NCBI GenBank assembly: GCA_018238545.1
Contig: JABCTC010000003.1
Coordinates: 32,001 to 96,000 of the forward strand
Reading direction: 5' to 3'
Length of the DNA stretch: 64,000 nt
DNA from: Candidatus Heimdallarchaeota archaeon
Lineage (GTDB): Archaea > Asgardarchaeota > Heimdallarchaeia > Heimdallarchaeales > Heimdallarchaeaceae
The translations under genes and the position numbers were made by a program. Shown here piece by piece: positions 4,104 through 24,592 of the stretch. Every line of letters begins with the position of its first letter. The stretch's first letter is position 1. The notes under the pieces are model-generated. The model was not told where the DNA came from, searched no databases, and saw nothing but the letters and a program-made list of their open reading frames with translations.

Positions 4104-7100
4104 ATGCAAGGTAAACTCCGTACAATTATAGGTATTTTAATTTTAACAATTACAGTAAGTTCATCAGTCGCAATGGGTGTATTGCTTCCTCTTCACTCTT
4201 CGAATTTAATTACCCAAATATATACAGATATGGATAATAATGCTCGGTTGACAGAGAGTGATTTCTTTCCAAATGACGGAAGCGGTAATTACTCTGAATG
4301 GATGTATACAGGTGTAGGAACAAACACTTCAAAATTTGTTGATCAAGCAGTTTTTGAATTCTTCAATATTACAGATAGAGAGGCTTACCTCGACTACAAT
4401 ACGAAAATAGCGTACTTCTTTGTGCAAGGTGAACTAGTTTTTGACATTATTATTAATAAAACAGTTTTAGAATACGACGTAGAATCTGACTATGTAGTTT
4501 ATGCTTATAGAAAACAATTTCTCTTCAATGCAGAAGACTCATCCCTAACTGGTGATGAAACTGTTTTGAATTTCAACTATCTTTGGCCATATTATATTGA
4601 ACATTTTGGAAATGGATCAGAATATGGTTTTCAGAGTTTTATAGCATCAAAACTAATTCAAGAAGAATTAATCGGTTTTAATACATCACTAGGTTATACC
4701 TTTGATGAATTAGCTTATGCAGTTATGAATAGAACATATGCTGAAGAAGAAGGTATAGTGGATTTAGGCATCTATTTGCCCCACAATTGGTTAAGTGTAA
4801 GACCTGCTTTTCCAGATCTTAACTTTGATATTGCAACAAGTTATCAGATATTGTATGATGCTATATATAATGGTCATGATTACTCATTACTAACAGGCGA
4901 AGCTGGTTCAACTAAATACTTCCTTGATTTAGTAAGAGGTCTTGATTTTGAAGGACAATATGATTTGATTGTTGATGTTGAACAACTTTTAACAGATATT
5001 TATGGAATTGATACTCCACAAGAACAAGAATACGCAAAATCCCTTGCAGCCTATATGAATTATTTACTAGGAAAGCCTTCATTGGATTGGCTTTATGAAA
5101 ATCAAATATCATATGTTTGTGAAAGAACTGCTATGGATTGGGTATTAGGTATTGAAGATCCTCTTATGGATGGAAAAAGATTCCCCTTAGTTAACAATCA
5201 ATCATTATCAAGTTCAAGTATTGATTGGGATTTAGATTTGTATTATGCAGAAAAACTTGGATCATATGATGTAAATGATGTTGGTAAAATCATAGCAATA
5301 GCTAATATTCCAGGGTATTATTATTCTCAATCTATGGAACTATTCGTGGAAGATAACCTAGCTTACGTGATAGAAGGTGGAACTGATATTAAAATAGTTA
5401 ATATGACAGATCCCTTATTCAAAGCAATCGGTCAATTCGGAGACTTCATTCTTGACACTGCTCTTCCCAATCCTTCATACGATCCTATAGGCGTTGATGG
5501 TTATATTTCAAACCTTGTTGTAGTTGATTCATATATTTATGCAGTAGAAGGTGACACTGGATTAGAAATACTCAATGCAACCGACCCAAGTGCTATTTAC
5601 GAACTTGACCAGTGGGATAATTTTGGGAATGCTGATATGCGAGATGTTGATAACGCCGTTTTTGGAACATCAACTCCTTATGATGCTCTTATAATAGCAA
5701 ATGGACAACATGGTCTAACTTATGCCAGATTGCAAACTGAAGATAGAACAGTAAGTACAGTTGTTAATTTTGCAGGGTTATCTGGAGAGGCTTATTCCGT
5801 AGATGAATACAATGATTACGCTTTCGTAGGTTTAGGAATTGATGGAATTGATGTAGTTAGTATAGATGGTCTCGACGGTACAATGGCGCTTGAATATCAT
5901 TATGATTCAATCAATTTTGCAACATTCAATAACATTCTAGATGTTAAAGCAGAAAATGGATTCCTATACGTTCTTGATGCAGTTGAGGGATTGTTAATAT
6001 TCGATATATTGTTTAATGGTACTCTTATTGAACAAGGTCAATTTGCATATGGACCTACGGAAACACCTTACATTGATGTTTATGTTGAAGGAACTAATGC
6101 CTATTTAGCACAAGGAGATTATGGTCTTGTTGTAGTAGATATCTCTAACAAACTCAGTCCTTCTGAAAATGCCAGATTTGACGGTGCTGAACACAAAGGT
6201 TTAGCATACAGCGTATATGTTGATGGAAGTGATGTTTATCTTTCAGATTATTCTCAAGGACTGGTTCATCTCAATTATGTCTCTAACACCTTTTCAATTG
6301 CTAATAAAGATCAGTTACACACTTTCGTTGAAGCTTGGCAAAGCGAGAACAATATTCAATTCAATAATTGGCTTCTAAGTGATCCTGAATTCGAAGCAAA
6401 TGAAACATATGATTCATTCGGATTATACACATTTGTTGAAAGAGGTTTCAGACAACAATGGACAGAGTATTTCCTTAGACCTTACATCTTCTCCTCATTA
6501 ACAGATACAGCTCTGTTTGTTGATAAAACAGTATTAGTTTATACCGCACAAGCTCAGATACCATATCTACAAAATGAGGAAAACAGCCTGTATTGGATGC
6601 AAGACGCTAACTTCCTCAATGAAAGTTTCCAACATGCAGGAAGATGGAGCATCCTTCATGGGGTAGAATATCAAGCAACAGATTTTGATATTACTCATTC
6701 CTTCCCTGGTACATTACGAGATGAATTCCACATGCAATTCATGTTAGTAGAACCTAAAACAGGGTCTATAATTGAACGCAAAGATAGAGTACAATATAAT
6801 ACACGAGCTATAGACTATAAAGAGGCTTATTCACTTCTCAATAAGACTACATTCGGATACGAGTGGGAAGTCCCTGGGGCTAATTACGTCAATTTACCTG
6901 TTGATCACATCTACAAGACATGGCATGTTACATATCCAGCTTTACCTGGAGATATGGCAACACTCTTCTGGCAAGAAGATGTCTACAAAGCTACAAATAA
7001 TTTCTATGAAGTGTTAAGAGAAGACTTCTTAGATAAAATCGACAATGCTGATGCTCTGAGAACATTAGGTGCTTTTGGTTCAATGTTCAGTGTTGCCGCT

Positions 7101-7163
7101 GGTTTTATTGTAGCTTCTGTTGTGCTCAATTTCATGAAGAAGAGAGCAGAAATTCCAAAATAA
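4104..7163 (+). CDS. CD36/SR-B (LIMP-2)-like two-TM glycoprotein with inserted LVIVD-repeat beta-propeller
   Basis: N- and C-terminal TM helices. CD36-like motifs FEFFNITD, YRKQFLFNAEDS...DETVLNFN, RTAMDWVLGIEDPLM, LVEPKTGSIIERKDRVQYN, LFWQE. LVIVD repeats (YIYAVEGDTGLEILNATDP; NAYLAQGDYGLVVVDISN). Many N-x-S/T sequons. Confidence 0.7.
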   Translation: MQGKLRTIIGILILTITVSSSVAMGVLLPLHSSNLITQIYTDMDNNARLTESDFFPNDGSGNYSEWMYTGVGTNTSKFVDQAVFEFFNITDREAYLDYNTKIAYFFVQGELVFDIIINKTVLEYDVESDYVVYAYRKQFLFNAEDSSLTGDETVLNFNYLWPYYIEHFGNGSEYGFQSFIASKLIQEELIGFNTSLGYTFDELAYAVMNRTYAEEEGIVDLGIYLPHNWLSVRPAFPDLNFDIATSYQILYDAIYNGHDYSLLTGEAGSTKYFLDLVRGLDFEGQYDLIVDVEQLLTDIYGIDTPQEQEYAKSLAAYMNYLLGKPSLDWLYENQISYVCERTAMDWVLGIEDPLMDGKRFPLVNNQSLSSSSIDWDLDLYYAEKLGSYDVNDVGKIIAIANIPGYYYSQSMELFVEDNLAYVIEGGTDIKIVNMTDPLFKAIGQFGDFILDTALPNPSYDPIGVDGYISNLVVVDSYIYAVEGDTGLEILNATDPSAIYELDQWDNFGNADMRDVDNAVFGTSTPYDALIIANGQHGLTYARLQTEDRTVSTVVNFAGLSGEAYSVDEYNDYAFVGLGIDGIDVVSIDGLDGTMALEYHYDSINFATFNNILDVKAENGFLYVLDAVEGLLIFDILFNGTLIEQGQFAYGPTETPYIDVYVEGTNAYLAQGDYGLVVVDISNKLSPSENARFDGAEHKGLAYSVYVDGSDVYLSDYSQGLVHLNYVSNTFSIANKDQLHTFVEAWQSENNIQFNNWLLSDPEFEANETYDSFGLYTFVERGFRQQWTEYFLRPYIFSSLTDTALFVDKTVLVYTAQAQIPYLQNEENSLYWMQDANFLNESFQHAGRWSILHGVEYQATDFDITHSFPGTLRDEFHMQFMLVEPKTGSIIERKDRVQYNTRAIDYKEAYSLLNKTTFGYEWEVPGANYVNLPVDHIYKTWHVTYPALPGDMATLFWQEDVYKATNNFYEVLREDFLDKIDNADALRTLGAFGSMFSVAAGFIVASVVLNFMKKRAEIPK
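5340..6300 (+). repeat. LVIVD repeat array (~7 blades, beta-propeller) inside the CD36-like gene
   Basis: Repeated 'V.V.g.yaYv..g..GL.ivdis' units of ~45-50 aa. Confidence 0.75.
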
Positions 7164-7200: not shown

Positions 7201-7354
7201 ATCTAAGTTTTTCAAAATGCCTGTCTAATCATTTTTGCCGGTAAAATTTAACTTTAAATAGGTATAACAACAATATGATTTATATTGACAAGAACAGTCT
7301 CAATATTATTATATGTTAAGGGGACATATGACAAGAGGATAAGAGGTAAACACA

Positions 7355-10300
7355 TTGTCTGATGATACAAGAGCAAAGAAAATGTCAGCAGCTGCATTCT
7401 TCAATGATAACAAAGCAATAGCTGGCTTTGGAAATTCAATGAGGGCAGTATTTACGAGTATCAGAGAACTTGTAGAAAATGGTTTGGATGCAGCAGAAAT
7501 AAGGGGAGTCAACCCTGTTATTTCAGTTGACTTACGTAAGCTTTCTAGCAGAGAAATTAACGATCTGCTAGATGTTACACAATATAAAAAGTTGGAAAAG
7601 CATCTTGATTTTCTGCAGTTAACTTGTAGAGATAACGGTGTTGGGGTTCCAAGTAATCAAATAGCAGATTTGTTCGGACGAGTATTAACCGGAACTAAAT
7701 ACGGTGTGATTCAGACTCGTGGTCGATTTGGTCTTGGAGCAAAAATGTGTTTACTTCACTCTATGTCTTCAGTTGATCTACCTGCTCGTATCAAAAGTCG
7801 TTATTTTATGGATGATATGACTCATGAACTACATTTAATGATAGATCTTGAAAGAAATCAACCTATCGTCATGGAACAAAGAGAATATTTATCTGGAGAT
7901 CCAAATGCGCTAGAAGAACCGGGTGTTGAGATTAGCATAACCTTTACAGGTGCTTGGAGATTAGCAAAGAATAGCGTTAAAGAATACTTCAGACAGTTAG
8001 CAATTATTACTCCTTATGCAAGTTTTGATATAAAAGTTCCTGGTGATAAGGAAGGAGAATATGAGGAATTACATTATGTGAATGTGGTAGATGATATGCC
8101 TTCCCCTCCCCAGCACGTTAAAATTCATCCTTGGGGTTGTGATATCACTCAATTCAAATCAGAATTATCTTCAACTAAAGCTAAAAAAATGAAGAAATTT
8201 CTTGCAGAACATTTTATGGGAGTAACAGAAGAAATTGCTGAAGATTTCTTCCAGTTATTGGAAATCGACCCAAACAAATCACCTTCGAATATAACTTCAA
8301 AAGAAATTCGAAGAATAGTTCACGAAGGTTTTGTTAAAGCTTATCAAGAAGCCAAGGATGTTAAGAGGAAACGAGATAGGATATTTCAGTTTGACCCACC
8401 TAGAGGAGATGCTCTTTCTCCATTAGGTGCAGGAAGATTAAGGAAAGGTCTCGAGAAAGAATTACAACCAAAATTTGTTGAAGCGGTTACAAGACCTCCT
8501 AAGGCTTATTCTGGTCATCCTTTCGCAATTGAAGCAACAATGGGTTATGGTGGGGGAGTAAATGAAGCAGCTCAAGCTAAAGGAACTACCGTCCACGACA
8601 ATAAGATAATTTACAGGTATGCTAATAGAATCCCTCTTATTTTTGGGGCTGGAAATGATGTTATCACTCAAGTCGTTTCCTCTATTCGGTGGAACGATTA
8701 TGGACTAACTAGACAGTCTGACCCTCTTGCCATCGCTGTTTCGTTAGTCAGTACAAAAATACCTTTCCCTGAGACAAGTAAAGAATATATTTCTAATGTT
8801 CCTGAAATTGAAGAAGAAATAAGATTAGCTCTGATGCAATTAGGAAGGAGACTTAAAACCTTTTTGAGCAGAGCAAAACGAAGAAAGAGAGAACATGCTC
8901 GATTATCAAGATTTGTTAAATCAGCACCAGTAATAATTGAAAATCTCACTCAAATTCTTGAAGATGAGAACCTTAAATTTACCGATTTCCGACTAGAAAC
9001 AGATCGGATTTCTGCAGCTCTCGCTCATGGTACTCCGAGGAAGGTTCGCCTTTATATGCCAATTGGAAAGCGGTTATTCGGAGCAAATATTTGGTGCCCA
9101 AATAATATTCAAACTACATTAAAGAATAACAATGTTGAGTCAGTTGCAGAATTTTTACTCAAAGATTCAAAAGAATTAGTTACAATCCTTCAATTAACAG
9201 AATCTCAAGTTTACGACATAAAATTAAGAACCATTTCTGAATTGGATAGAGACAACTTGAGTCCAAATTTTGACACAAAGACCTTAGTATCTCGTCTTGT
9301 TGAAAGAAGGTTCTCCTCCGAAGGTGAAAGAAAATTCATTTCCCTAAAAGATGCATTATTTAGGCGATGGATACAAAATGTTTACCACTATTTAGCAACG
9401 GATTTCGAAAAATTACGTAATGTCTCCGGAATGCTTGAGAAATTTTTTGAAACTAAAAAAGACGAATTACTTAATGATTATTTAGCTAAAGGAGCTAAAA
9501 CAAGTAAAAATACCATATTAACAATAGACAAAGCTATTGCTACTTACGCTAAAGCATCAGATTTAAAGAAAGAACAACTTTACCCTCCTTTTAAATATTT
9601 AAAATCTGAAACTGACAATGTTCTTGGAGAAGATTTATCGATAGAAGAATTTCTTTACCAGACTGTACAACCCACATCTATCAACTATCATCCAGAAATA
9701 ACTCGAACACTTATCGAGTATCTGAAAATTGTATTTACCCACATCAAAAACAAATTCCCTGCTTTCGCAACAACCAGTATAACAAAAATGCAACCTGATT
9801 GGACAGACGGTTATACAAAAAACGCTTTCCACAGAAGAAAGATAAAAACTGTTGGTGATTTTCTAAACCATTCTACTGATGATCTTATCGACATAAAAGA
9901 ACTGGAAAGAATAATGTATGAACAATACATTGAACTGATCACATTAAATACCAAATCTGTTCCTTTGAATGATTTCTCTTTTGTTGAGATTCAACAGCTA
10001 AAAGAAGAAGAAAACCGTATTAAGAGAGTTTTGGCTAAACACGGAATAAAAACCCTTGCTCAGTTCTTAAGTTATCCCTCTGAATCGATTTTACTTAAGA
10101 AGTTTGATACTTTAAGTGCTCTTCTGCTCAAGGAATCAAAATTCAAATTATTTACAAATTTACACGATACTAATAGAATTATTAATCAATCTTACATCAA
10201 AGTTATTCCTAAAAATGTTGAAACAGAATTAGTGAAAAATCAAATATTTACAACTTCTACCTTTTTAGCCAAATCTTCTGTAATTTTGAAGAAAATGGGC

Positions 10301-13300
10301 ATGAAGAAAAAAGATATTGAGAAAGCAAAGAAAGAACTTGGTACACCTTTACAGAATTGGGTTGATCATGATGAAATTCTCAAGAAATGTGGTATAGTAG
10401 TTTTAGAAGAATTATTCTTCAATGACGCCTCTGAATATAATCTCACAACTGAAGAAAGTAAGAAATATACTGAAAATATCATTTTCCTCCGTACGCCATT
10501 AGTTTTTGTGTTACCTGAATTAAGAAGTTCTTCTTATCTTCTTACTGAAATTGGCATCAATAATATTGGTCGTTTTTTGATATGGTCTAATACTGAACTT
10601 TCAGATATCCTTTATCTATCTGTCAATGAAATAAAAGCTCTAAAGAAGAAAATTGCCTTTCAAAAACAAATTCAATCAAAAGAAGAACTGAAGAAAGATT
10701 TAGTACTTTTTTCAAGGCACTATCCCAATTTAGTGAAATATTTTGGTAATGAAACACCATCGATTCAGGATTTGTATTATGCTTACCAATCAGAGAATTT
10801 CTCGCTTAATACAGGTTTTTGGAAGAAATTATACAAATTGAGTGAACTATCTCAACAAGAAGCTGTTGATTTAGTACATCTTTATCCAAAGAACTTCAAA
10901 GATATAGAGACGGTGAAAGATGCTCTTCTACGCTTGAAATCGAGGAATGTTGAAACTATACGTCAATTCATGGAATTACAACCAGAGATAATTGAATCAA
11001 AATTGAGTAACTCAAAGGAAAGAAAAGTTGCATTAGATCTTTATGATAAAATACTATTCAGAAGATTTGAAGGAGAACAGGAACTTCATAAACAAATACT
11101 TCTTCTTAGTGAGTATGATGAACTTCAAAGAAATTTTGGATCTCCTATCTCTAGAATCCCTGAACTTACTCTAGAGGAATTGGAAAAATTCCGAAGCCAC
11201 GATATACTAGCTGTTCATCAAATATTCGATTATACAGTTGATGAAATTGCTACTTTGCTTGGTCGTGACAAAGGCTCGGTTCAACACTTCATGGAAAGCT
11301 TTACACTCTTACGGAAAGGAACACCGTTTTTTGAGAAAGCAGATAGAAACAGATACAAATCACTTGTTTCCTTTGAATTTGAGGATTTAGAACGATTTTC
11401 TTCCATAGAGATTCAATCCCTTATTCAAGCTGGCTATGCTTCAGTTGACCAGATTTTTTACCTCACACACCCACTTACTTTTTCCTCTTCCATTCTAAAT
11501 TGGAATGTTGTAGACAAATTTAGAAAATTATTACGATCTCCACTTACATTGGTTACATGGGAAAAATCAGTTAAGTTAAAATCTTTTGATGAGGTTAAAA
11601 ATAAAGAAGTTGAGGTTGTGGATATTCAGATTTCTACATTAACTACTTCACAATTAACCGTTTTGCAGAATCAAGGCATTTCAAGAATCATCGATCTTCT
11701 TGTAAGTGAACCAGAAACGCTTTCAGAATCTCTTAACATCAGTTTGGATGAAGCTAAGATGCTTCAGAAAGATATCAGAATTATTGATACTGGAACTGAT
11801 TTAGCAGATTTAGACATCTTCAAATCAGAAATTGTTGATCAATTAGAAGAAAACAACATCTTAACTCTTGAGGATTTATATTTCTCAACTACGAAGAGTA
11901 AATGGCGAGTTAAGGAAGTTCCATGGGATATCATTATGTCATTCAAAAGTGTCCTCAACCTCCCCCTTGCACATTTGTCAGATATGTTGGATGAAGATAT
12001 TATAGTTGCATTAGAGGGCGCAAATGTTAAAACTCTATTAGGATTTATTCTTACAACTCCTGAAAGTTTAATGAATAAAACTGGTATACCTGATGAAAGA
12101 TTCGAAACAATAAAACGCGGATTGGATATCTCCGATATATTCAGTTATTTCTCACTTCCAAGTTATTTTCTTCCAAATTTAACCTTCCAGCAAACCGAAA
12201 TTCTACAAGAAAATGGCATTAAATCGGTTGCAGAATTTGTAAATAGCTCTCCACAGAAAATTAACAAACTAATCAAAGTAACTGCAAAGCAGTTTCGAGA
12301 AATCACTACGGCTTTAACCACTCAAAACCTCCAAGCTCTTTACGATGAGAAAGGTATCTTTGCTTTTGAAACAAAGCTCTTCGATAAAATGGAACAACGG
12401 CAATTGGGCAGAGATTCAATATTTGAATTTGATAGGTTTCAAACTATCCAAGAAATATACTATACGTTGAATAGAGATTTCTATTCAAATAATCAAAACC
12501 TGTGGGGAAAGGTCTCGGCAATCCAGAAAGTATTATTACTTCCTCTGCACATATTCACCGAAATTTCTGAATATGCTCTTGAGATTATGAGTCAAAACAG
12601 TATTGATTTTGTTTATCAGCTACTCTTTATTCTTGATGCAGATATTACTGATCCCTTATTATTCAGAACTGTATCAACTTATTCTTCAAAAATAATTGAG
12701 ATGAGAGCATTTCATTACTTTTCTAAGCTCCCTGCTTCTGTTTATAACTCAAGTTATTTCAAAAAAATATTGAAGGATACTGACAACAAATCTCTATCTG
12801 ATGTTATTACTGATGAGAAGATTATCAAAGATTTATCTGCTAAGGATAAACAATACCTATATGAAAATTATAACTTAACTCTCATTCGATCAATTCTAGA
12901 ATTACCTCTAAGGATTACTCCTTACTTTACAAGAATAAAGAAAGTTAGAAGAGAAGAATATAAAAATACAAAAATCGGAGATGTTTTTGATATTGATTTA
13001 GAGGAGCACTCTGCTCTGTCTTCTTTTTACTCTAGATTACTTGAAGAAAATTCTTTCAACAAATTAATCTCACAATTAACTATCCCTATATCTTCAATGG
13101 GATTACCTCGCGAACTTGCATTGAAGCTAAGCAAATCCTCTATAGGTACGTTATTAGCTTTCTATTCTACTCCTGAGAAACAAGTTTCTGAAATCTCTGG
13201 TTTCTCACAGAAGAATATTCGAGAAATAAAAGATGAATTAAAATATTCCAACATTGTTTCTATCCGAGTTTCACAAGCTCATAAAATTAAACCCTCTTCC

Positions 13301-16300
13301 TTTGCATCAGAAAAACAAATTTTTGACCTTATGGGGAGATCGATATCGGATATTGAGTCTCTCTTCTACTCCGCAGAACATTTAGGAATCTCAAAATGCC
13401 TTCCCATTGAAAATTATAAGAAAATCAAGGAAATTCTATCAGGATCTATAAGATTCATAGGATTTCTTTCATTTGATGAAATAAGGCGGTTGGAGTATCA
13501 TAATATTAATTCAATAATAGATTTTGCTCTACTCTCGAAAAAAGAACTTTTCACTATTACACAGAATCCAATTTACAAGGAATTTCATGTTCTAGATCTG
13601 ATTTCTTTTGATGAATTATCAGAAAAAAGGATTCAAGCTGCTATACCCCTCTCTCTGTGTCCCTCGATAGAAGAAGACTATTTAGATAAAATCAAAGAAA
13701 TAGGAATCAACTCTATTCAAGATTTTATCTCTAGAATGCCAGAAATTAGAGAATCTCATCCTCATTTAGTGAAATTAGATATCTTCCGCGAAGTGCAAAT
13801 GTATCTGTCCTCTGTTGCTTATATCGGACTTCCAAATGAAAGCGTTCAAAAACTGATTTACTCAGGTGTTGGCGATATTTTATCTTTCATTACTGAAGAT
13901 CCTTCAACTATCTCTCTGATTCTTGGAATAAGTGAGAAACAAGTTGAGAAATATAGCAAACTTGCTGTTCCAAGTAATTTGGTCACAGAAGTCGACAACA
14001 AAGGTGTTCTTCTCACTGAATTTTCAGCGTTATCTAAAGGAAGAAGAAATTCCTTACTTAAATCTGGTAAAGAAACAGTTCAAGATCTATTTAGTTCCCG
14101 TTATCAAGCATATTCTCAATCTAACATCTCTGATGTGTTAATGAGCGAATTTATTGAAAGTTGTAATGTGTCTTTATACAGAATTGAAGAAATTGAACCA
14201 GAAATTAAAGCTAAACTTTCAAAGAGTGAAATAACTAGGATTATTGACTTATTATGTAGTACTGATGCAGAACTAAAGAAAGCTCTTGATGGTAAACTCC
14301 CAAAAGAGTTTAAGCAAATTAGAAAAGGTCAGTTTACTTTAACAAAAGGCATTCCACTAATTTTGAATGAACCTTTGCAGGATATTATTAGAGAACTTAA
14401 TATCGAACCTTCCAACAAAAAAGTTGAGGACATGTTTGGTTTTGTACCCGAATTTCTACTTCAATTTACAGAATCTGAAAGGATTGAAAAAGACAAGAAT
14501 TTGGCTTTTCTTGAACAGATAGTTAGTTTCTTGAGTCTTAATATACTATCATTACCATTATTTAATACAACTACTAAACTAATTCTTTGGAACCGTGGAA
14601 TCCGACATGTTATAGAACTTTTATCTACTAATATGAACACAATTGATGGTATCCCATTTCAAGTAATATCAGAGGTTCGCTCTTTCCAGAAAGAATTTAG
14701 TTTAACTAGAAGCATGTCAGAGACATTGTCACCATACATTGATGATGTACTCATCTTGCCTGCAAAGAAGCAAGCTAAATTCCAGAATTATGGTCTCACT
14801 AATGCATTGTTATTTGTTGATTTTATACCTCATCCTATATTCAGTTTCACAGCAAGTGAGCAATCTATTCTCAGGATTGTTTCAAATAACATGTTCAAAC
14901 CTATAGCCTGGTTATCTTCAGATATGTCATTTAAGATAGAAGATATGAATTTACTTATTCAAAATAGAGCAATAAATATCCTTTCAGCTCTTCTTTTGTT
15001 ATCTGATCAAAATGATACTAAAGTTCTAGAAACTTTATCTAATAAATACTACAAATCGATTTCTACTTACCTAAATTCATCAATCTTACAATTTAGTGCT
15101 CCTGAATGGGCCTTGCAATTAACAGATACAAAGATAATAACTGATTCTAACAGTTTGAAGATACTAAAGAAAGATAATATCTCTTATCTTGATGAATTTT
15201 TAACACTAGAAAGCAAGTTCTTGAATAACCCTAATCTTGTAGCAGAGATTTTGCCAAAATTACTCTCCCTAAAGAGTCTCCCTATTTCCTCTATCAGTGA
15301 TCTATCACCCAGTAACATTCAAAAATTAAAACGTTCAAGAATAAATAATGTTTATGAGTTTCTTGTTTTTCCAGCTCCGTTGCTTTCAAATCTTCTGTCG
15401 ATTTCTGTTGAGAATGTTAACGCAATTAAATCTTCAATTGATCTTTCATCATTGGAAAAAACAGCTAAGCTTACAGGTTTAGATCTAGAGCTCTTCCCAG
15501 AACTTTCCCAAGATTCTAGAACAATTCTTCAAAGAAGAGGTTGCGTATCTCTGAATCAAGCATCAAAAATGGATCTAGACTTGATTCCACTTCTTTCAGA
15601 AGATAAAGCGATTCTACAAAATCTAATAGCTATGTTGTTTACTCCTACTACATTAATTGGAAAAATACTTAAATTAACAAAAAATGAAATTGATGAATTA
15701 TTGGTTCAGAACGTATGTACCTATGCAGACCTGTTGGAGCTTCCTCAAAAAACATGGCCAGCAAAAATAAGGAAGAGTCTTTCTGATAAGGATTCTGATC
15801 CAACATACCTTATCAAGAATCTACAGAACCTTGAGAAATTCGGAGTACCTATAGAAAAGTTAGATTTAGCGAAAAGTGTAACTAAATCTTTGGTAGAAGC
15901 AGGAATTGTGACAATTGATCATCTATACTATCTACCCATAGCCTATGTAAGTGCAAGAAGTAAAGTTAAACAGCATATTCTTGAAGAAATAAAGAAGAAA
16001 TTATCATATAATATTAATTTCCTTCAAGATATCTCACTTACAACTTTATCTGTTTGCTATTCAAAAGATTCATTCACGATAATTAGTTGCTTGATTTATT
16101 GGAATGGTTTATCGAAAGATGTAAGAACAGACTTAGAAGGTTCTTTAGACAGTATCAAATTAATTGAAGAAACAAGTTTTATAGAACCACTGACTCCAAC
16201 GGAAACAAAGTTAAAATCAATAGGTATTTTCTCCTTAAGATCATTCATTTTATCTCCTCAGATTAAGAAAGAAGCAGGCTTAACAACCAAACTTTTACCA

Positions 16301-19300
16301 TCTCTATTAGCAAATATTCGTTTCTTAAATCTAGATCCAAAGCAGAGTTATCGCTTGAAGAAAACAGGTTTTACAACTGTTGCTGACTTGCTTCTAAATA
16401 CATCAAAAACTATATCTGTTAAGTCTAAATTGGGCAAGAACGCAATTGATGAAGTTATCAATAACATAAAAATTGATAACCTAACCAGTTTGATTAAATC
16501 GATGGAACGAGAGCATTTACATGATGCATTTTATCTGAATTCTAACGATAAAGCATTCTTGAAATCAATAGGTGTTTATAGTTTAGCAGACTTAAACGAG
16601 TATACTGTTTTTGATTGGTTTGTTTCAAAACAAAAAATACAGAAAATCAAAAAGAAAATTAATTCCTTATTAGATACTAACATTTTGTACTATCCAGGAA
16701 TCACATCTAAGCAGTATGCAGAAGTTGTTGAACAATTCTTCATGAAGGATATATTTACAATCAAAGATCTGATGATATCAACAACAGTTGAGCAGTCAAG
16801 TGATTTAATTGAATTTTTAACCATTTTCTCTACTAACAAACCTAAAATCCAATCCCAGTATTTAACTTCTCTATCATTCTTAAAAGGGATTGAAGCCAAA
16901 GACTTGTTTAAGATTGACGTAAAAATGGAAAAATCTGCAACAATTAATGATCTTATTATAGCATTATACAAAAATTCAGCAGAATTGACCAAAAAGGGTG
17001 ATGATGTTCTTAAGCAAATCAGCTACCCCATTTCTATTTCATCGAAACTCAATCTCGATGAAGTAAATATTTTACTTAGTAAAAATATCCTCTCTTATGG
17101 AGATGTGCTTACCAAACCATCAGGTTATTGGGTAGCATTTACTCCAGTGAAACTAAAGAAGAAACTTCTTGAAATTCTTAGTACAATAACATCGAAAACT
17201 ATTAGCAATGATAGTAGTAAGGGCGTTCAATTAAGTAACATGAAAATATTTGATGCAAACCTCAAGAAACAGCTTACATCAAATTTTAAAACACTCGATG
17301 AAGTTGCTCATGCAATAAGAATAGGTGATTCTCGGATCTTAAAACCATTAGAGAGGAAAATCACTAAGGTTCTCTCTACTCCTATTTCTCTCCTTAAACT
17401 GCCAAAAATCAGCATCAAATCTTGGAAACGACTGTTATCTACAGCATCTACATTAGAAGAATTTTACTTATTAACAGATCAAGAACTTGTCAAAATATTT
17501 TCTTCTACCAAAGAAGAAATCGTAAAATTAAAAAATAATCTTGGTCCTGATAATATCGTCCTACCTCCAAGGATAAAGGAAAATAAAATCTTTACTAGTT
17601 CTGATGTTAAAGAATTGAGTGATAATAGTATTTCAAATTACATACAAATATTTGATAAATCTGCAGAAAAAGCAGATCTCAGCACTTCCTTAAAAGATAA
17701 AATTGCTTTCTACAAAGAGTTTGATGTTAAGCAACTAGATGAAAACTTAGAAGAAACTATACTCTTGAAAGATTTTGTAATTCTTGAATCTTATGCAGAT
17801 TCTCTAGAATTAAGTAGAAAACAAAAAGAATCTGTAAAGAACCTTTCTTCCTTGCTTCTATCTCGTGGTACATATTTGTCAAAGATTTTTGATATAGATT
17901 CTAATAAAGACAAAAGTGGTTTGCTCAATACAACTATAGAGTATTTCCTCTTAATTGAGAAATATCAACCTAAAATATACTCGAAAATTATTGAATCTTT
18001 ACCGGGAAATATCTCTTCACAATTCAACTCTTTACTGTCTTATCTCAATCGATCACCAATTCTCCTTTCAGGACCAAATCTAAAAAATATCAATAAAATA
18101 GTTAAACTTCCTTATGAAAATGTAAAGGACTTGCTATTATTGTCCAAGGAGAAACTTGTTCAAGAAATAGATGACACTGCAGTTCAAAGAAATATTAGAG
18201 GATTGACATTATCTATTTTGAAGAGTCTTAATTCCAAACTGACCTCTATTCCAAAAGAATTTTTGACAGCTTACGAGTTAAATCAGTTAAAGAAAGAGAA
18301 TATTTATTCCTTTGAGGAAGCTTTGGTTTTCAATAGAAAATCAACTAGTAAGAAGTCTAAGACTTGGTTACTCTCTGAGAAAGTAAGAAAAATTTCCACT
18401 ATCAACACACTCTCACTTTCTTCGTATCTCCCCTCATCTAAAATACAAGAAAGACTACTAAAACTTAAGATATCCAATGTTTATGAGCTGGTTTATTATT
18501 GCCAGAATACAGAAAAAGAAGAAGATCTGAGTCTTTGTCAAACTGTAATTCAATCTGTAAGTTCCATTAACATTGAGGAAATTGAAATAAAAGAGAGAAA
18601 AAGATTTGCTAAATTCTTTAATGACCCTGATATTCTTTCTTATTTGCGAAGCCAAGATATCAGAACTTTTGGACCTTTAGTACACTATCTAGAGCAATTA
18701 GAGGATGAAACTATTACACCTGAAATTGAGAAAATCTTATCCGTTATGCGTTTTCCAATTTCTGTTCTATCAGAAAATAAGAAACTTGTACAAAAATTAG
18801 AAAGTGAAGGTTATAACCAAGTAATTGATCTTCTTCTTCCTGCAAAAATTCAAAACAGTTTGAAAAGCAATATTACAGAGAATCAGCGGAAAGTTCTTGC
18901 GTCTTTAATCAACATGTTTTATCAAGAAATATACCAAACAATCCTAAAAAATCATTATCCAGTTTCAAAACTTACTTTGATCGATGATATTTTACAAAAA
19001 GAATTAATAAAAGCTGGATATGCAACAGTAGCTCATCTCAAATCACCTGATATAATTATTGCTGATACAAGCAAATTAAATCTGCAACAAATTTCACGTA
19101 TTGTGAGACTGTTTGATGCTTCTACCTACTACTTGTCTGAAATGCTCAAAGACTATCCACAAAGTGCTTTTGTTTTGTATAGCAATGGAATTAACACACT
19201 ATGGGACATTTTCCTTACAGGAAGTAAGGAAATATCCAAGATTACAGGTATATCTGTTCGTCAAGTAAATTCCTACTTATCAACTATCAATCCTCAAGCT

Positions 19301-20059
19301 ATGAAACTTTCGCAGAAAGATCAAATTATTCTGAAAGAAACACTTACCTACTTAACAACCGATGATGTGGGACGATTGGAACAAGATAACATCACATCTA
19401 TCCAACAATTATTGTTCCTAACAAAGGAAAACAAAACCAGTTCTTCACTCCAACGAAGTAATGTAAAGAAATTCATTCAATTACTTAGTATGCCTTTAAG
19501 TACAATAGACATACAAGAAACAGTTATTAAACAGCTGGAAGTACTCGGCATTAAATTAGTAAAAGATTTTGTTGTTTATCCAGCAGAACCTATGGCTGGC
19601 AAAGTAGACATAAGTTATGTAATGATAAAAAGAATTAAGGGAAGACTTCCTTTGGTTACAAAAAAGAAAGTAAAACAAACTGCCAAAACTTCGACCTTAA
19701 AGAAACCAACAGCTAAAAAATCTGCTACAACTAAGGGAGCTACTCCCGCTAAAAAGCGTTCTTCAACAAAGTCTAAGACCACAAAGAAAACTATAGCTCC
19801 GAAGAAATCAGCAAAAACTCAACAAAAAGCTAAACCAAAGGCTAAACCAAAGGCTAAACCAAAGGCTAAACCAAAGGCTAAACCAAAGGCTAAACCAAAG
19901 GCTAAACCAAAGGCTAAACCAAAGGCTAAACCAAAACCGAAATCCACTAAACAAATGACTTTGATGGATATTAAACCTACTTCCACAAAGAAACCATCTT
20001 CAACTTCAAAAACGAGAAAAAGCTCAAAATCCACTACTAAAAAAGGTGAAAAATCATGA
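7355..20059 (+). CDS. top6B: Giant DNA topoisomerase VI subunit B: GHKL-H2TH-transducer core (~aa 1-540) + ~3500 aa tandem HhH/RadA-NTD-like repeats + Lys/Ala/Pro-rich tail
   Basis: RELVENGLDA, DNGVGV, QTRGRFGLGAK, RYANRIPL, VSTKIPFPETSKE motifs. Upstream GAGGT SD. Directly upstream of and overlapping top6A. One continuous 12.7-kb ORF. Confidence 0.93.
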   Translation: MSDDTRAKKMSAAAFFNDNKAIAGFGNSMRAVFTSIRELVENGLDAAEIRGVNPVISVDLRKLSSREINDLLDVTQYKKLEKHLDFLQLTCRDNGVGVPSNQIADLFGRVLTGTKYGVIQTRGRFGLGAKMCLLHSMSSVDLPARIKSRYFMDDMTHELHLMIDLERNQPIVMEQREYLSGDPNALEEPGVEISITFTGAWRLAKNSVKEYFRQLAIITPYASFDIKVPGDKEGEYEELHYVNVVDDMPSPPQHVKIHPWGCDITQFKSELSSTKAKKMKKFLAEHFMGVTEEIAEDFFQLLEIDPNKSPSNITSKEIRRIVHEGFVKAYQEAKDVKRKRDRIFQFDPPRGDALSPLGAGRLRKGLEKELQPKFVEAVTRPPKAYSGHPFAIEATMGYGGGVNEAAQAKGTTVHDNKIIYRYANRIPLIFGAGNDVITQVVSSIRWNDYGLTRQSDPLAIAVSLVSTKIPFPETSKEYISNVPEIEEEIRLALMQLGRRLKTFLSRAKRRKREHARLSRFVKSAPVIIENLTQILEDENLKFTDFRLETDRISAALAHGTPRKVRLYMPIGKRLFGANIWCPNNIQTTLKNNNVESVAEFLLKDSKELVTILQLTESQVYDIKLRTISELDRDNLSPNFDTKTLVSRLVERRFSSEGERKFISLKDALFRRWIQNVYHYLATDFEKLRNVSGMLEKFFETKKDELLNDYLAKGAKTSKNTILTIDKAIATYAKASDLKKEQLYPPFKYLKSETDNVLGEDLSIEEFLYQTVQPTSINYHPEITRTLIEYLKIVFTHIKNKFPAFATTSITKMQPDWTDGYTKNAFHRRKIKTVGDFLNHSTDDLIDIKELERIMYEQYIELITLNTKSVPLNDFSFVEIQQLKEEENRIKRVLAKHGIKTLAQFLSYPSESILLKKFDTLSALLLKESKFKLFTNLHDTNRIINQSYIKVIPKNVETELVKNQIFTTSTFLAKSSVILKKMGMKKKDIEKAKKELGTPLQNWVDHDEILKKCGIVVLEELFFNDASEYNLTTEESKKYTENIIFLRTPLVFVLPELRSSSYLLTEIGINNIGRFLIWSNTELSDILYLSVNEIKALKKKIAFQKQIQSKEELKKDLVLFSRHYPNLVKYFGNETPSIQDLYYAYQSENFSLNTGFWKKLYKLSELSQQEAVDLVHLYPKNFKDIETVKDALLRLKSRNVETIRQFMELQPEIIESKLSNSKERKVALDLYDKILFRRFEGEQELHKQILLLSEYDELQRNFGSPISRIPELTLEELEKFRSHDILAVHQIFDYTVDEIATLLGRDKGSVQHFMESFTLLRKGTPFFEKADRNRYKSLVSFEFEDLERFSSIEIQSLIQAGYASVDQIFYLTHPLTFSSSILNWNVVDKFRKLLRSPLTLVTWEKSVKLKSFDEVKNKEVEVVDIQISTLTTSQLTVLQNQGISRIIDLLVSEPETLSESLNISLDEAKMLQKDIRIIDTGTDLADLDIFKSEIVDQLEENNILTLEDLYFSTTKSKWRVKEVPWDIIMSFKSVLNLPLAHLSDMLDEDIIVALEGANVKTLLGFILTTPESLMNKTGIPDERFETIKRGLDISDIFSYFSLPSYFLPNLTFQQTEILQENGIKSVAEFVNSSPQKINKLIKVTAKQFREITTALTTQNLQALYDEKGIFAFETKLFDKMEQRQLGRDSIFEFDRFQTIQEIYYTLNRDFYSNNQNLWGKVSAIQKVLLLPLHIFTEISEYALEIMSQNSIDFVYQLLFILDADITDPLLFRTVSTYSSKIIEMRAFHYFSKLPASVYNSSYFKKILKDTDNKSLSDVITDEKIIKDLSAKDKQYLYENYNLTLIRSILELPLRITPYFTRIKKVRREEYKNTKIGDVFDIDLEEHSALSSFYSRLLEENSFNKLISQLTIPISSMGLPRELALKLSKSSIGTLLAFYSTPEKQVSEISGFSQKNIREIKDELKYSNIVSIRVSQAHKIKPSSFASEKQIFDLMGRSISDIESLFYSAEHLGISKCLPIENYKKIKEILSGSIRFIGFLSFDEIRRLEYHNINSIIDFALLSKKELFTITQNPIYKEFHVLDLISFDELSEKRIQAAIPLSLCPSIEEDYLDKIKEIGINSIQDFISRMPEIRESHPHLVKLDIFREVQMYLSSVAYIGLPNESVQKLIYSGVGDILSFITEDPSTISLILGISEKQVEKYSKLAVPSNLVTEVDNKGVLLTEFSALSKGRRNSLLKSGKETVQDLFSSRYQAYSQSNISDVLMSEFIESCNVSLYRIEEIEPEIKAKLSKSEITRIIDLLCSTDAELKKALDGKLPKEFKQIRKGQFTLTKGIPLILNEPLQDIIRELNIEPSNKKVEDMFGFVPEFLLQFTESERIEKDKNLAFLEQIVSFLSLNILSLPLFNTTTKLILWNRGIRHVIELLSTNMNTIDGIPFQVISEVRSFQKEFSLTRSMSETLSPYIDDVLILPAKKQAKFQNYGLTNALLFVDFIPHPIFSFTASEQSILRIVSNNMFKPIAWLSSDMSFKIEDMNLLIQNRAINILSALLLLSDQNDTKVLETLSNKYYKSISTYLNSSILQFSAPEWALQLTDTKIITDSNSLKILKKDNISYLDEFLTLESKFLNNPNLVAEILPKLLSLKSLPISSISDLSPSNIQKLKRSRINNVYEFLVFPAPLLSNLLSISVENVNAIKSSIDLSSLEKTAKLTGLDLELFPELSQDSRTILQRRGCVSLNQASKMDLDLIPLLSEDKAILQNLIAMLFTPTTLIGKILKLTKNEIDELLVQNVCTYADLLELPQKTWPAKIRKSLSDKDSDPTYLIKNLQNLEKFGVPIEKLDLAKSVTKSLVEAGIVTIDHLYYLPIAYVSARSKVKQHILEEIKKKLSYNINFLQDISLTTLSVCYSKDSFTIISCLIYWNGLSKDVRTDLEGSLDSIKLIEETSFIEPLTPTETKLKSIGIFSLRSFILSPQIKKEAGLTTKLLPSLLANIRFLNLDPKQSYRLKKTGFTTVADLLLNTSKTISVKSKLGKNAIDEVINNIKIDNLTSLIKSMEREHLHDAFYLNSNDKAFLKSIGVYSLADLNEYTVFDWFVSKQKIQKIKKKINSLLDTNILYYPGITSKQYAEVVEQFFMKDIFTIKDLMISTTVEQSSDLIEFLTIFSTNKPKIQSQYLTSLSFLKGIEAKDLFKIDVKMEKSATINDLIIALYKNSAELTKKGDDVLKQISYPISISSKLNLDEVNILLSKNILSYGDVLTKPSGYWVAFTPVKLKKKLLEILSTITSKTISNDSSKGVQLSNMKIFDANLKKQLTSNFKTLDEVAHAIRIGDSRILKPLERKITKVLSTPISLLKLPKISIKSWKRLLSTASTLEEFYLLTDQELVKIFSSTKEEIVKLKNNLGPDNIVLPPRIKENKIFTSSDVKELSDNSISNYIQIFDKSAEKADLSTSLKDKIAFYKEFDVKQLDENLEETILLKDFVILESYADSLELSRKQKESVKNLSSLLLSRGTYLSKIFDIDSNKDKSGLLNTTIEYFLLIEKYQPKIYSKIIESLPGNISSQFNSLLSYLNRSPILLSGPNLKNINKIVKLPYENVKDLLLLSKEKLVQEIDDTAVQRNIRGLTLSILKSLNSKLTSIPKEFLTAYELNQLKKENIYSFEEALVFNRKSTSKKSKTWLLSEKVRKISTINTLSLSSYLPSSKIQERLLKLKISNVYELVYYCQNTEKEEDLSLCQTVIQSVSSINIEEIEIKERKRFAKFFNDPDILSYLRSQDIRTFGPLVHYLEQLEDETITPEIEKILSVMRFPISVLSENKKLVQKLESEGYNQVIDLLLPAKIQNSLKSNITENQRKVLASLINMFYQEIYQTILKNHYPVSKLTLIDDILQKELIKAGYATVAHLKSPDIIIADTSKLNLQQISRIVRLFDASTYYLSEMLKDYPQSAFVLYSNGINTLWDIFLTGSKEISKITGISVRQVNSYLSTINPQAMKLSQKDQIILKETLTYLTTDDVGRLEQDNITSIQQLLFLTKENKTSSSLQRSNVKKFIQLLSMPLSTIDIQETVIKQLEVLGIKLVKDFVVYPAEPMAGKVDISYVMIKRIKGRLPLVTKKKVKQTAKTSTLKKPTAKKSATTKGATPAKKRSSTKSKTTKKTIAPKKSAKTQQKAKPKAKPKAKPKAKPKAKPKAKPKAKPKAKPKAKPKPKSTKQMTLMDIKPTSTKKPSSTSKTRKSSKSTTKKGEKS
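9050..19650 (+). repeat. Degenerate protein-level tandem repeat (~55-60 aa helical units resembling RadA N-terminal/HhH domains)
   Basis: Recurring consensus 'P-I-x-x-L-x-x-L-[ST]-x5-L-x3-[GN]-I-x-[ST]-[IV]-x-[DE]-[LF]-L-x5-[EL]-x3-L-x-I-S' e.g. SPISRIPELTLEELEKFRSHDILAVHQIF, LPISSISDLSPSNIQKLKRSRINNVYEFL, MPLSTIDIQETVIKQLEVLGIKLVKDFV. Confidence 0.75.
19829..19936 (+). repeat. 12-bp tandem repeat GCTAAACCAAAG x9 encoding (AKPK)9
   Basis: Eight perfect units plus a final GCTAAACCAAAA, read directly. Confidence 0.97.
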
Positions 20060-21465
20060 GTTCAGATTGCAAATTCATTATTAGTAATTCAACAGTTTTA
20101 CCTGCTATTGAGAGAACTGCTTCTTTTGACAAGGATATTCTAGTTCGAGAGATATACAGTTGGGCCAGAGAAACATTTGACCTCAAACGAGGGTCATATG
20201 TACTATTTTTAAGAAGCTTCAAGAAATGGCACAAACTTGAGCCTACAAGAAAATTATCTAGATACAATCTACAAAAAGATACCATGAGTATTAGTGTAAA
20301 AAACACAGTTTCAATCGACAAACTAAAAATCGTTAGAGAAGAATTGAAACATCTAACTGAATACTTGATGCCTTTCGGTGTTACTCACGTAGCAACTAAA
20401 AATTCTCAAGAAACAAACAATCTTCTTGTAGAATATTCTTTAGATTTCCTAAATCAAGCAATGTTATCACCTAATGATGCATCTTTTCAGATTCCATCTA
20501 GAGCTGGTACAAATGTAGGTTTTGATGAGGATCAAGAATTAGTTCTTATTGGTCGTCAAATGATTGATAGACAATTTAGAAATTTAGCTTCAGTTAGTTC
20601 TGTCGAACAAATGACCATTGTTATGAAACTTATTCATGATATTCTATCCAGAGATATTCACAGTACTAAAAGAGATATATTTTACATGAATGTAAATGCA
20701 TTTGATAAACAGTCTGTCTCTGATTCTCTCATAGAAGATGTTGGCGCAATGTTACAGGTTACTCGTTCATCTTTGAATATTAGTGCTTCTTCTAAAGGTA
20801 TTGTTGTTGGGAGGATTAGTTTCAAAGAAAAAGGAGATCTCATAAATTGCCGTGCAATAGGGGCTGGCAAAGCTATTTCCCCTAATATTGATGATATAGA
20901 AAACATGGAAACTGATGCAGAGATGTGTTTAGTTATTGAGAAGGATGCTGTCTTCAATAGGCTAGCTGAGGATCAATTCTATGATTATGTCCCAAGTATC
21001 CTTGTAACAGCAAAAGGTCAACCAGATATAGCTACAAGACAATTTTTGAAGAAGATAAACGATGATCTCAATCTACCTATATTTGCTGTAATGGATGCTG
21101 ATCCTTATGGGTTCGAAATTATGAGAGTATATAGTGTAGGGAGCAAAGCATTGAGTTTTGAATCAAGTCATTTAGCTGTTCCCAGCATTAAATGGTTAGG
21201 TTTACTACCTAGTGATCTCGCTCCTGAAAGTGGATTTGATATTCCGAGAAGTGCTTTAATTAAAATGACTTCCAAAGATCTTCATCGATCTAAACTGATG
21301 CTAGATGAGGAATTTGTTAAAAGAAAGCCAAAATGGAAAGAACAACTAGAAATACAAATAGCAACTGGTTTAAAAGCTGAAATACAGGCTCTTAACGCAA
21401 GAGATCCACAATATATTACCAATTTTTATCTTCCACAAAAAATCGAGGCTGGAGATTTTATCTAA
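20056..21465 (+). CDS. top6A: DNA topoisomerase VI subunit A (Spo11 family) with N-terminal ubiquitin-like domain
   Basis: TKRDIFY (catalytic Tyr), IEKDAVF, TAKGQPD, MDADPYG TOPRIM motifs, KAEIQAL. ATGA overlap with top6B and GGTGA SD. The N-terminal ~80 aa contain LEPTRKLSRYNLQKDT (ubiquitin: LEDGRTLSDYNIQKES). Confidence 0.95.
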   Translation: MSSDCKFIISNSTVLPAIERTASFDKDILVREIYSWARETFDLKRGSYVLFLRSFKKWHKLEPTRKLSRYNLQKDTMSISVKNTVSIDKLKIVREELKHLTEYLMPFGVTHVATKNSQETNNLLVEYSLDFLNQAMLSPNDASFQIPSRAGTNVGFDEDQELVLIGRQMIDRQFRNLASVSSVEQMTIVMKLIHDILSRDIHSTKRDIFYMNVNAFDKQSVSDSLIEDVGAMLQVTRSSLNISASSKGIVVGRISFKEKGDLINCRAIGAGKAISPNIDDIENMETDAEMCLVIEKDAVFNRLAEDQFYDYVPSILVTAKGQPDIATRQFLKKINDDLNLPIFAVMDADPYGFEIMRVYSVGSKALSFESSHLAVPSIKWLGLLPSDLAPESGFDIPRSALIKMTSKDLHRSKLMLDEEFVKRKPKWKEQLEIQIATGLKAEIQALNARDPQYITNFYLPQKIEAGDFI

Positions 21466-21525: not shown

Positions 21526-22032
21526 TTATCCCTTTAGAAGTACAATCTCAATTGTGGAAACTGTTTTTGGACCGTATCCTTCTATATCGCTTGGTAATTC
21601 TTCAGATCCTATAACCACTTTATCTATTACTACACTATCTTGTAGAAATTTTCTGCGAGCAATTTCAGCAACATCAACTGCTTTAGAGATTTGTCTCCCG
21701 CGGGCTTGAATTGCGCATTTATCGCGTTTATTTAATATAGTAACTGCAACTAAAACATAACTAATTGTTGGTTTTTTTCCAATGTAAATAATATGACTCT
21801 GCTCTCTGTATTCAGTTTTAGGTTTAGGTTTAGGGGTTTCTTTGGGAGCTTCCTCTTTGACTTCCTCTCTGACTTCCTCTCTGACTTCCTCTCTGACTTC
21901 CTCTCTGACTTCCTCTCTGACTTCCTCTCTGACTTCCTCTTTGACTTCCTCTTTGACTTCCTCTTTGACTTCCTCTTTGACTTCCTCTTTGACTTCCTCT
22001 TTGACTTCTTCCTTAGCTACTTTCTTACTCAT
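21526..22032 (-). CDS. albA: Alba chromatin protein with N-terminal acidic EEV[KR] repeat extension
   Basis: IYIGKKP..SYV, IQARGRQISKAVDVAEI, IGSEEL, VSTIEIVL. ATG at 22032 is preceded by an AGGTG SD. Confidence 0.93.
   Translation of the reverse strand: MSKKVAKEEVKEEVKEEVKEEVKEEVKEEVKEEVREEVREEVREEVREEVREEVREEVKEEAPKETPKPKPKTEYREQSHIIYIGKKPTISYVLVAVTILNKRDKCAIQARGRQISKAVDVAEIARRKFLQDSVVIDKVVIGSEELPSDIEGYGPKTVSTIEIVLLKG
21856..22011 (-). repeat. 12-bp tandem repeat GAGGAAGTCA[A/G]A x13 encoding (EEVK)6(EEVR)6(EEVK)
   Basis: Read directly; two homogeneous blocks differing at one base. Confidence 0.97.
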
Positions 22033-22204
22033 GAACATCACCTATTTTTCTTTTGTCTGTCAAATGTTTCAGTATAAGTAGTATCAAAAAGGTATTGCAA
22101 CGTTAAAAATATTTCCTATTACATTTGTGACAGAAAAGAACAGATAAATACATTAAAGTAGACTACATTACGGGTTTGATATCACCAAAGGATGTTTAAT
22201 AGAT

Positions 22205-24001: not shown

Positions 24002-24006
24002 AGAAC

Positions 24007-24591
24007 ATGAGCTATGGACAAAAATTATTCCTTAAAGTAATTTTAGCTGGAGAAGCGGAAGTAGGAAAAACAAGTTTAAGACGTTCATATCTTGGAGAAG
24101 GATTTGTCAAAAACCATCTTCAAACAATCGGTGCTGATTTTGCTTCATTACCAAAAACAATCAAAGATTATAACGTTCTTTTTCAGATCTGGGACGTAGC
24201 AGGACAAGATATTTTTGAAAACGTCAGGATGATGTACTATAAGGGGACTCTTGGAGCTCTAATGGTATTTGATGCTACAAAGATTGCTACATTTAGAACA
24301 TTAGATCGTTGGATAAAAGAGCTTGAGAAAGGTACAGAAAGAGGGATTGTTCCATTCTTTATACTTGGTAATAAGATGGATTTAGTTACTTCTGCAAAAA
24401 AAACCAAGCTAAAAGCAGAAGTCACTAAGTATATAGCTGCATTAAACAAGAAGTATTCTGATAAGGGATTCACCGTAGAGTATATTGAAACCTCTGCAAA
24501 AACAGGTGAGAATGTCCATTCAGCTTTTGAGCAATTAGGTGTTAAAATTATAGATTACATTCAGCATAGAAAGAAGATGAGGGGGAAATAA
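24007..24591 (+). CDS. Rab/Ras-like small GTPase
   Basis: G1 GEAEVGKTS, G2 TIG, G3 WDVAGQ, YYKG, G4 NKMD, G5 ETSAK. The ORF track also allows a GTG start at 23998 overlapping the CPBP stop. Confidence 0.93.
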   Translation: MSYGQKLFLKVILAGEAEVGKTSLRRSYLGEGFVKNHLQTIGADFASLPKTIKDYNVLFQIWDVAGQDIFENVRMMYYKGTLGALMVFDATKIATFRTLDRWIKELEKGTERGIVPFFILGNKMDLVTSAKKTKLKAEVTKYIAALNKKYSDKGFTVEYIETSAKTGENVHSAFEQLGVKIIDYIQHRKKMRGK

Positions 24592-24592
24592 A

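Follow-up and report, generated by a model that had tools for sequence, protein, structure and literature searches.

A giant topoisomerase VI B subunit of Heimdallarchaeia carries an array of RadA-like domains that may serve as a spacer and tether

The 64,000-nucleotide stretch of a Candidatus Heimdallarchaeota archaeon genome analysed here (the window; contig JABCTC010000003.1 of assembly GCA_018238545.1) contains a gene for the B subunit of DNA topoisomerase VI (Topo VI), top6B, of unusual length, followed by top6A. The genome belongs to Heimdallarchaeaceae and is 92% complete, and its single Top6B match is this frame. The features of the locus are as follows.

7355..20059, + strand: giant top6B open reading frame (ORF), 4234 amino acids (aa), TTG start
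7355..8974, + strand: Top6B catalytic core, aa 1-540, with GHKL ATPase, H2TH and transducer parts
9077..19654, + strand: array of ~56 units of the RadA/RAD51 N-terminal-domain type (helix-hairpin-helix, (HhH)2/SAM-like), aa 575-4100, from profiles, AlphaFold models and structure matches
11330..11638, + strand: two predicted beta-hairpin inserts in the array (aa ~1326-1347 and ~1400-1428), from the secondary structure of the model
19655..20056, + strand: basic low-complexity tail, 134 aa, 49 lysines, net charge ~+49
19826-19933, + strand: nine-fold four-residue repeat within the basic tail
19949..19972, + strand: motif KQMTLMDI, aa 4199-4206, resembling a PCNA-interacting peptide (PIP)
20056..21465, + strand: top6A, 469 aa, catalytic Y210, Toprim residues E295, D347 and D349
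20056..20310, + strand: ubiquitin-like N-terminal domain of Top6A, aa ~1-85, from a profile

A preliminary description of the locus, made from the sequence alone, had claimed a complete Top6B core ending near aa 540, a frame open far beyond it, and an intact top6A overlapping its stop. All three claims stand. PRK04184 (aa 5-543) and TIGR01052 both matched the core above cut-off, and the transducer PF09239 matched aa 349-515 (E = 4.6e-54). Aligned with relatives, the GHKL motifs (N box, G1, G2 and G3) are E38, N42, D93-G95-G97, K115 and G123-G126-G128; the WxxY motif of the transducer is present (W446..Y449), and the switch lysine is K476. The nearest solved structure to the core is 2zbk of S. 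shibatae. top6A overlaps the stop of top6B as ATGA and keeps all four catalytic residues, the tyrosine of the 5Y-CAP domain among them; both Top6A Pfam domains scored over cut-off, while the NCBIfam equivalogs scored below theirs. Judged by its residues, the giant Top6B-Top6A pair is a catalytically intact Topo VI.

The ubiquitin-like domain claimed for Top6A is supported at the profile level. A family profile of the first 85 aa matched single ubiquitin chains (E = 4e-5), the best members, Borrarchaeum-like Top6A, matched PF00240 (E = 4.4e-8), and the RefSeq label of Borrarchaeum Top6A is 'ubiquitin-like protein'. The N-terminus of the window Top6A alone matched only FERM_f0 (E = 0.002). On the family profile, the ubiquitin-like part is an integral N-terminal domain of Top6A.

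The region beyond the core had been described as roughly 50-60 degenerate helical units of ~55-60 aa, of two alternating types. Two 58-column profiles (A and B) found 39 units in aa 575-4100, of which 30 scored at least 10 bits; shuffled controls gave a mean of 0.07 hits and reversed controls 0.39. A proximal stretch of A units is followed mainly by B-A pairs of ~120 aa, spaced ~54-57 aa from B to A and ~67 aa from A to B. The types tend to alternate, with 434 unlike and 166 like neighbours when related genomes were pooled. AlphaFold models of aa 490-1680 (predicted local distance difference test, pLDDT, 85.5; predicted template modelling score, pTM, 0.70) and aa 2920-4110 (pLDDT 85.8; pTM 0.54) showed the helical pattern ~16 and ~20 times, including in stretches that the profiles miss. 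The models cover two-thirds of the array and the middle was filled by period (~20 units), which gives a total of about 56 units, within the range first proposed. The models also suggest that the units are packed in order against each other.

Two units were matched directly to structures, and their top matches were the N-terminal domains of RAD51C and RAD51D (Z 8.6-8.9, root-mean-square deviation 1.4-1.5 Å, 54-57 residues), a Z near 8 being modest for helical repeats; the remaining units share the secondary-structure pattern. Pfam RAD51D_N matched the array with an E value of 4.6e-23, in independent agreement with the structure matches. The likeness to the RadA N-terminal domain noted earlier thus holds by structure and by Pfam; direct profile comparison of the N-terminus of the window RadA with the array was weak (E = 0.036). 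Further structural neighbours were the alpha C-terminal domain (alpha-CTD), the Y-polymerase thumb, the acidic repeats (AR) of NusA and SAM domains. Foldseek with a whole model returned nothing at E ≤ 0.001, the Atlas structure search gave only template modelling (TM) scores below 0.2, and the Atlas feature searches gave only leads below 0.9. No other protein with a comparable array was found in the same genome.

The fusion of core and array is not an assembly error. An 8,039-base contig of a public marine-sediment run, which may be the source sample, covers 7340-15378 gap-free and bridges the core/array junction, as does a contig from a second study. Relatives are collinear over their full length, two closed genomes among them, and the alignment with Ca. 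Heimdallarchaeum aukensis shows 42% identity over 4148 columns. The possibility that relatives encode the array as a separate gene was also rejected: a split was found only in G033, where one collinear frameshift falls at the junction. The other short frames that were checked stop at scaffold gaps (G054, G055) or contig ends (G005, G008). A self-BLAST of the protein gave zero matches, indicating that the array units are old. In four genome pairs, the ratio of nonsynonymous to synonymous substitutions (dN/dS) was 0.02-0.05 for the core and 0.05-0.20 for every array segment, which shows purifying selection along the arm. Together with the length variation described below, these data bear on the view that the array is a tolerated repeat expansion of little function or an artefact, which is very improbable: lengths do run from ~1110 to 4300 aa between families, with ~2190 aa in one f3 genome, and the metagenome-assembled genome G033 is frameshifted at the junction, but within families the proteins are collinear and of near-constant length, closed genomes included, dN/dS is ≤0.2 throughout, the units are too diverged for self-BLAST, and the bridging contigs already contradict the artefact part.

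The distribution of the architecture was surveyed in 82 genomes of the class Heimdallarchaeia. The nearest named relatives of the giant Top6B are Heimdallarchaeaceae, and protein word searches reached only close relatives. Complete frames of the window's own family are ~4140-4305 aa long, including the closed genomes of H. aukensis (4184 aa) and H. endolithica (4304 aa). Those of families f3 and f4 are ~3470-3590 aa, apart from the f3 genome with ~2190 aa; those of Hodarchaeales are ~2310-2346 aa with 27-28 units; and those of family f7 are 1108-1155 aa with seven units. Families f3 and f7 probably correspond to Kariarchaeaceae and Gerdarchaeales, respectively. Outside the class, Borrarchaeum has 2282-2289 aa with 18 units. 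Among the phylum matches listed, there was also a 2967-aa array protein labelled Thorarchaeota, and representatives of other families had no repeats. The fusion is thus conserved across Heimdallarchaeia and recurs in Borrarchaeum, and top6A directly follows the giant top6B in every locus that reaches that far.

Long Top6B proteins of Loki- and other Asgard archaea (960-1350 aa) were considered as the same architecture and rejected, since they gave no repeat hits. Those of L078-L083 (Loki-like and other Asgard; 960-1280 aa) are enlarged upstream of the transducer, and those of L078-L080 share a conserved ~60-aa C-terminal domain unlike the array repeat. The 1348-aa Top6B of family f16 (L091:2094-6140) is long through internal insertions and has no array. 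In Borrarchaeum (L090/L071), a short top6B-top6A pair and a HEAT-repeat gene lie immediately upstream of the giant top6B, whose product has a ~590-aa helical non-repeat region before the basic tail.

In a quick tree of the cores, the array-bearing proteins formed one clade (Shimodaira-Hasegawa-like approximate likelihood ratio test, SH-aLRT, 100), with f7 branching first. These cores, a clade containing a EukProt sequence and four short archaeal Top6B proteins formed one group (SH-aLRT 99), whose inner order the tree leaves undecided.

GyrA was present in 68 of the 70 genomes of families f1-f6. In Hodarchaeales, the giant top6B has gyrA immediately before it, in a gyrA-top6B-top6A run (L060:1-917, L063:3-941 and others), with an overlap in one case. 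Neither f7 (0/12) nor Borrarchaeum (0/2) yielded a GyrA, which rules out a response to gyrase as a general rule for the array; both carry a second, short top6B-top6A pair. Every array-bearing family therefore encodes a second type II topoisomerase, either gyrase or a short Topo VI. This fits a specialisation of the array enzyme, although the number of independent lineages is few. The GyrA of the window genome (G000:C59:5441-8074) is a 1286-aa frame interrupted by ~430 aa that are probably an intein; several relatives show the same.

The positive charge of the giant Top6B is concentrated in its C-terminal tail, which the preliminary description had overlooked together with the PIP-like motif in it. 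The tail is hypervariable, but most family members retain KQxTLxD/E-h, and the Q, T and L of the motif (including Q4200 and L4203) are invariant in 14 aligned family tails. Compared with the PIP pattern QxxhxxAA, the motif has the glutamine at position 1 and the hydrophobic residue at position 4 in a disordered terminus. PIP-like endings that retain the aromatic half are also seen in Hodarchaeales and Borrarchaeum and in the further representatives P0092 and P0095, with aromatic residues present in the endings of P0095, Hodarchaeales and Borrarchaeum. When the tail peptide was modelled with the genome's own PCNA, the score was 0.76 against 0.01 for the best control, with Q4200 and L4203 at PCNA residues 41-48 and 248-255. 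At least 63% of contacts were shared between runs, with a partner pLDDT of at least 55; of 80 solved complexes, 58 attained the same mark, as did 2 of 110 mismatched pairs. PCNA with a PIP peptide is a textbook pair type that has been solved many times, so the docking result indicates likeness to a PIP rather than proof of binding.

These observations are best brought together by the proposal that the array is a long spacer arm by which a specialised decatenase is kept tethered to new DNA and to PCNA. The proposal is tentative, with a probability of roughly 0.45. The intact core, the repeated fold, the purifying selection, the loss of hairpins (see below) and the basic disordered tip with a PIP-like motif are what sequence and modelling provide. 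The enzyme would be an A2B2 heterotetramer whose B subunits extend as arms of ~56 domains of the RadA N-terminal type, each arm serving above all as a tether and semi-rigid spacer. The tip of the arm would hold PCNA weakly and would bind DNA by way of the basic tail, which would keep the strand-passage core at a distance on newly replicated DNA. There the core could remove catenanes or precatenanes, while routine supercoil control would be left to the second type II enzyme, gyrase or short Topo VI. Decatenation is the preferred reaction of the M. mazei Topo VI (PMC11894792).

Several points weigh against this proposal. The aromatic pair that belongs to the PIP consensus (PMC4929162) is missing at positions 7-8, where the window has I-K, so any binding of PCNA by the tail is probably weak. 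Other PIP boxes of the same genome carry the pair. A PIP-like motif is absent from most f3/f4 tails. About one-third of the A units retain the second-hairpin glycine, and some DNA contact by the array is possible. A simple tether leaves the length of the arm, the 2-fold length difference between families and the A/B alternation unexplained.

The preliminary description had proposed that the repeats could wrap, bridge or compact DNA or act as a protein platform, which would make Topo VI a chromosome-architecture enzyme. If the repeats bind DNA in the manner of the 12 (HhH)2 domains of topoisomerase V, the enzyme would be a processive or chromosome-organising topoisomerase. The part of the claim that concerned an undescribed topoisomerase with a repeat arm survives, and the arm is conserved. 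All three findings named in advance as fatal to it failed to appear, since the junction is bridged, core and array stay fused in relatives and a repeated fold is predicted. The DNA-wrapping part is weakened, because hairpins are lost and the giant arrays are neutral to acidic. As had been noted, most units lack the GIG hairpin: G-h-G was found in none of the aligned A units of the window (0/13 for hairpin 1 and 0/19 for hairpin 2), and across giant arrays, G-x-G occurred in 1/404 A units at hairpin 1 and 2/571 at hairpin 2. The position equivalent to RAD51 K64 was basic in only 30/571 units. The net charge of the window array is +10 over 3539 aa; in other lineages it falls to -110, with an isoelectric point of 5.2-5.6 in five of them. 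The Foldseek likeness to topoisomerase V was weak (E = 0.037, TM 0.07). On the other side, the units share their fold class with (HhH)2 domains that bind DNA, topoisomerase V encloses DNA through few direct contacts (PMC9489208), the RAD51 N-terminal domain binds nucleosomal DNA via K64 and K70 (PMC10990931), and some segments of the window array are basic. The earliest-branching array, that of f7 with its ~7 units, keeps G-h-G hairpins intact (14/29 and 10/30), and its A units are basic (mean charge +3.3), indicating that the ancestral array very probably bound DNA. The simplest history, as read from the quick tree, is that a short DNA-binding array expanded and then lost its hairpins. For the giant arrays, DNA binding by the repeats is doubtful from their residues, and DNA wrapping as their present role seems unlikely.

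Another explanation is that the array is a multivalent protein-docking platform or polymerises with itself, the fold being used as in alpha-CTD, the NusA acidic repeats, SAM domains or the N-terminal domains of RAD51 paralogues. Candidate partners would be histones, Alba, repair or segregation factors, or the ubiquitin-like domain of Top6A. That domain appears together with hairpin-less A/B arrays and is absent from f7 Top6A, the surfaces of the array are neutral to acidic, and alpha-CTD, the NusA AR and SAM domains are among the structural neighbours of the units. However, hydrophobic residues, proline and glycine account for most of the conserved columns in the alignment of the proximal array, family members share only 25-45% identity in the distal half, and no partner was identified in this analysis; a platform role is accordingly judged rather improbable. 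No RNA run was listed among the public data sets carrying the sequence.

The genes around the locus were recorded separately. Upstream, at 4104-7163 (+), lies a gene for a 1019-aa membrane protein with a weak CD36-family match (E = 2e-4) and LVIVD repeats, which precedes top6B in several members of the genus. Convergent with top6A, at 21526-22041 (-), is a gene for the chromatin protein Alba, whose N-terminus carries an acidic four-residue repeat. At 22205-26947 (+) there is a cluster encoding a 598-aa protein with no Pfam match, a Ras-like small GTPase and a 784-aa HEAT-repeat protein. The window RadA (32175-33287, -) has an N-terminal domain with intact G-I-G and a charged ~50-aa N-terminal extension. 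The window also contains an ORF of 2001 aa (48946-54951, +) and a 155-aa ORF (372-839, +) whose four-cysteine zinc ribbon resembles, as judged by eye, the C-terminal part of an IS200/IS605 TnpB.

The Spo11-TOP6BL meiotic break machinery descends from Topo VI, and the archaea proposed to be closest to eukaryotes fall within Heimdallarchaeia. The eukaryote-related Top6B of Heimdallarchaeia is 2 to 8 times the normal size and is filed in databases as plain 'Top6B', and phylogenetic studies with trimmed cores would miss the array. The Top6B lineage nearest to eukaryotic TOP6B might have been a clamp-tethered topoisomerase of ~1 MDa whose arms, made up of tens of RadA-like domains, organise or separate sister chromosomes, but this is speculative and we consider it unlikely. 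If it were true, and if eukaryotes branch within Heimdallarchaeia, their ancestor had the arm, which was later lost or gave way to separate accessory factors. The array enzyme offers a test system for the division of labour between Topo VI and gyrase and for PCNA tethering of a type II topoisomerase in archaea.

Compared with known systems, the catalytic parts are those of a plain Topo VI, and the repeat-arm architecture is new as far as searched. It was not described in the openly searchable literature, which included an Asgard replisome study (PMC12680538) and a TopoVI survey (PMC9665070). The archaeal Topo VI enzymes of S. shibatae (2zbk) and M. mazei (2q2e) have the GHKL-H2TH-transducer core, the catalytic motifs and the top6B-top6A operon in common with the enzyme described here. 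Their B subunit is 530-620 aa long, in contrast to 4234 aa, and ends in a short helix or an immunoglobulin-like C-terminal domain instead of ~56 units and a basic PIP-like tail; the ubiquitin-like domain on Top6A is a further difference.

The Top6B C-terminal extensions of gyrase-encoding archaea (Villain et al. 2022, PMC9348778), for which specialisation has been proposed, are likewise lineage-specific C-terminal additions in hosts that mostly encode gyrase. Those extensions are described as single globular domains of ~100 aa. The array is also present in f7 and Borrarchaeum, in which gyrase was not found. Eukaryotic TOP6B, to which the plant BIN4/RHL1 accessory system belongs, is a further known system for comparison: the clade with a EukProt sequence groups with the array-bearing cores in the quick tree, but the eukaryote-like Top6B proteins are 535-1006 aa long and none scored with the repeat profiles.

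Each unit of the array has the same fold as the N-terminal domain of RadA, RAD51, RAD51C and RAD51D (PF21794). That domain occurs once per recombinase, whereas here it is found in tandem, in two alternating types and with eroded hairpins. Topoisomerase V of Methanopyrus kandleri, like the giant Top6B, has a topoisomerase domain followed by tandem (HhH)2 domains (PMC9489208). It is, however, a type IC monomer with an unrelated catalytic domain, while the catalytic part here is the Top6B core of a type IIB enzyme with a Top6A partner and not a type IC domain. The 12 units of topoisomerase V form a positively charged track, in contrast to the ~56 hairpin-less, neutral-to-acidic units of the giant array. 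The series from seven hairpin-intact units in f7 to 18, 27 and ~56 hairpin-less units is that of a DNA-binding repeat which has apparently been repurposed.

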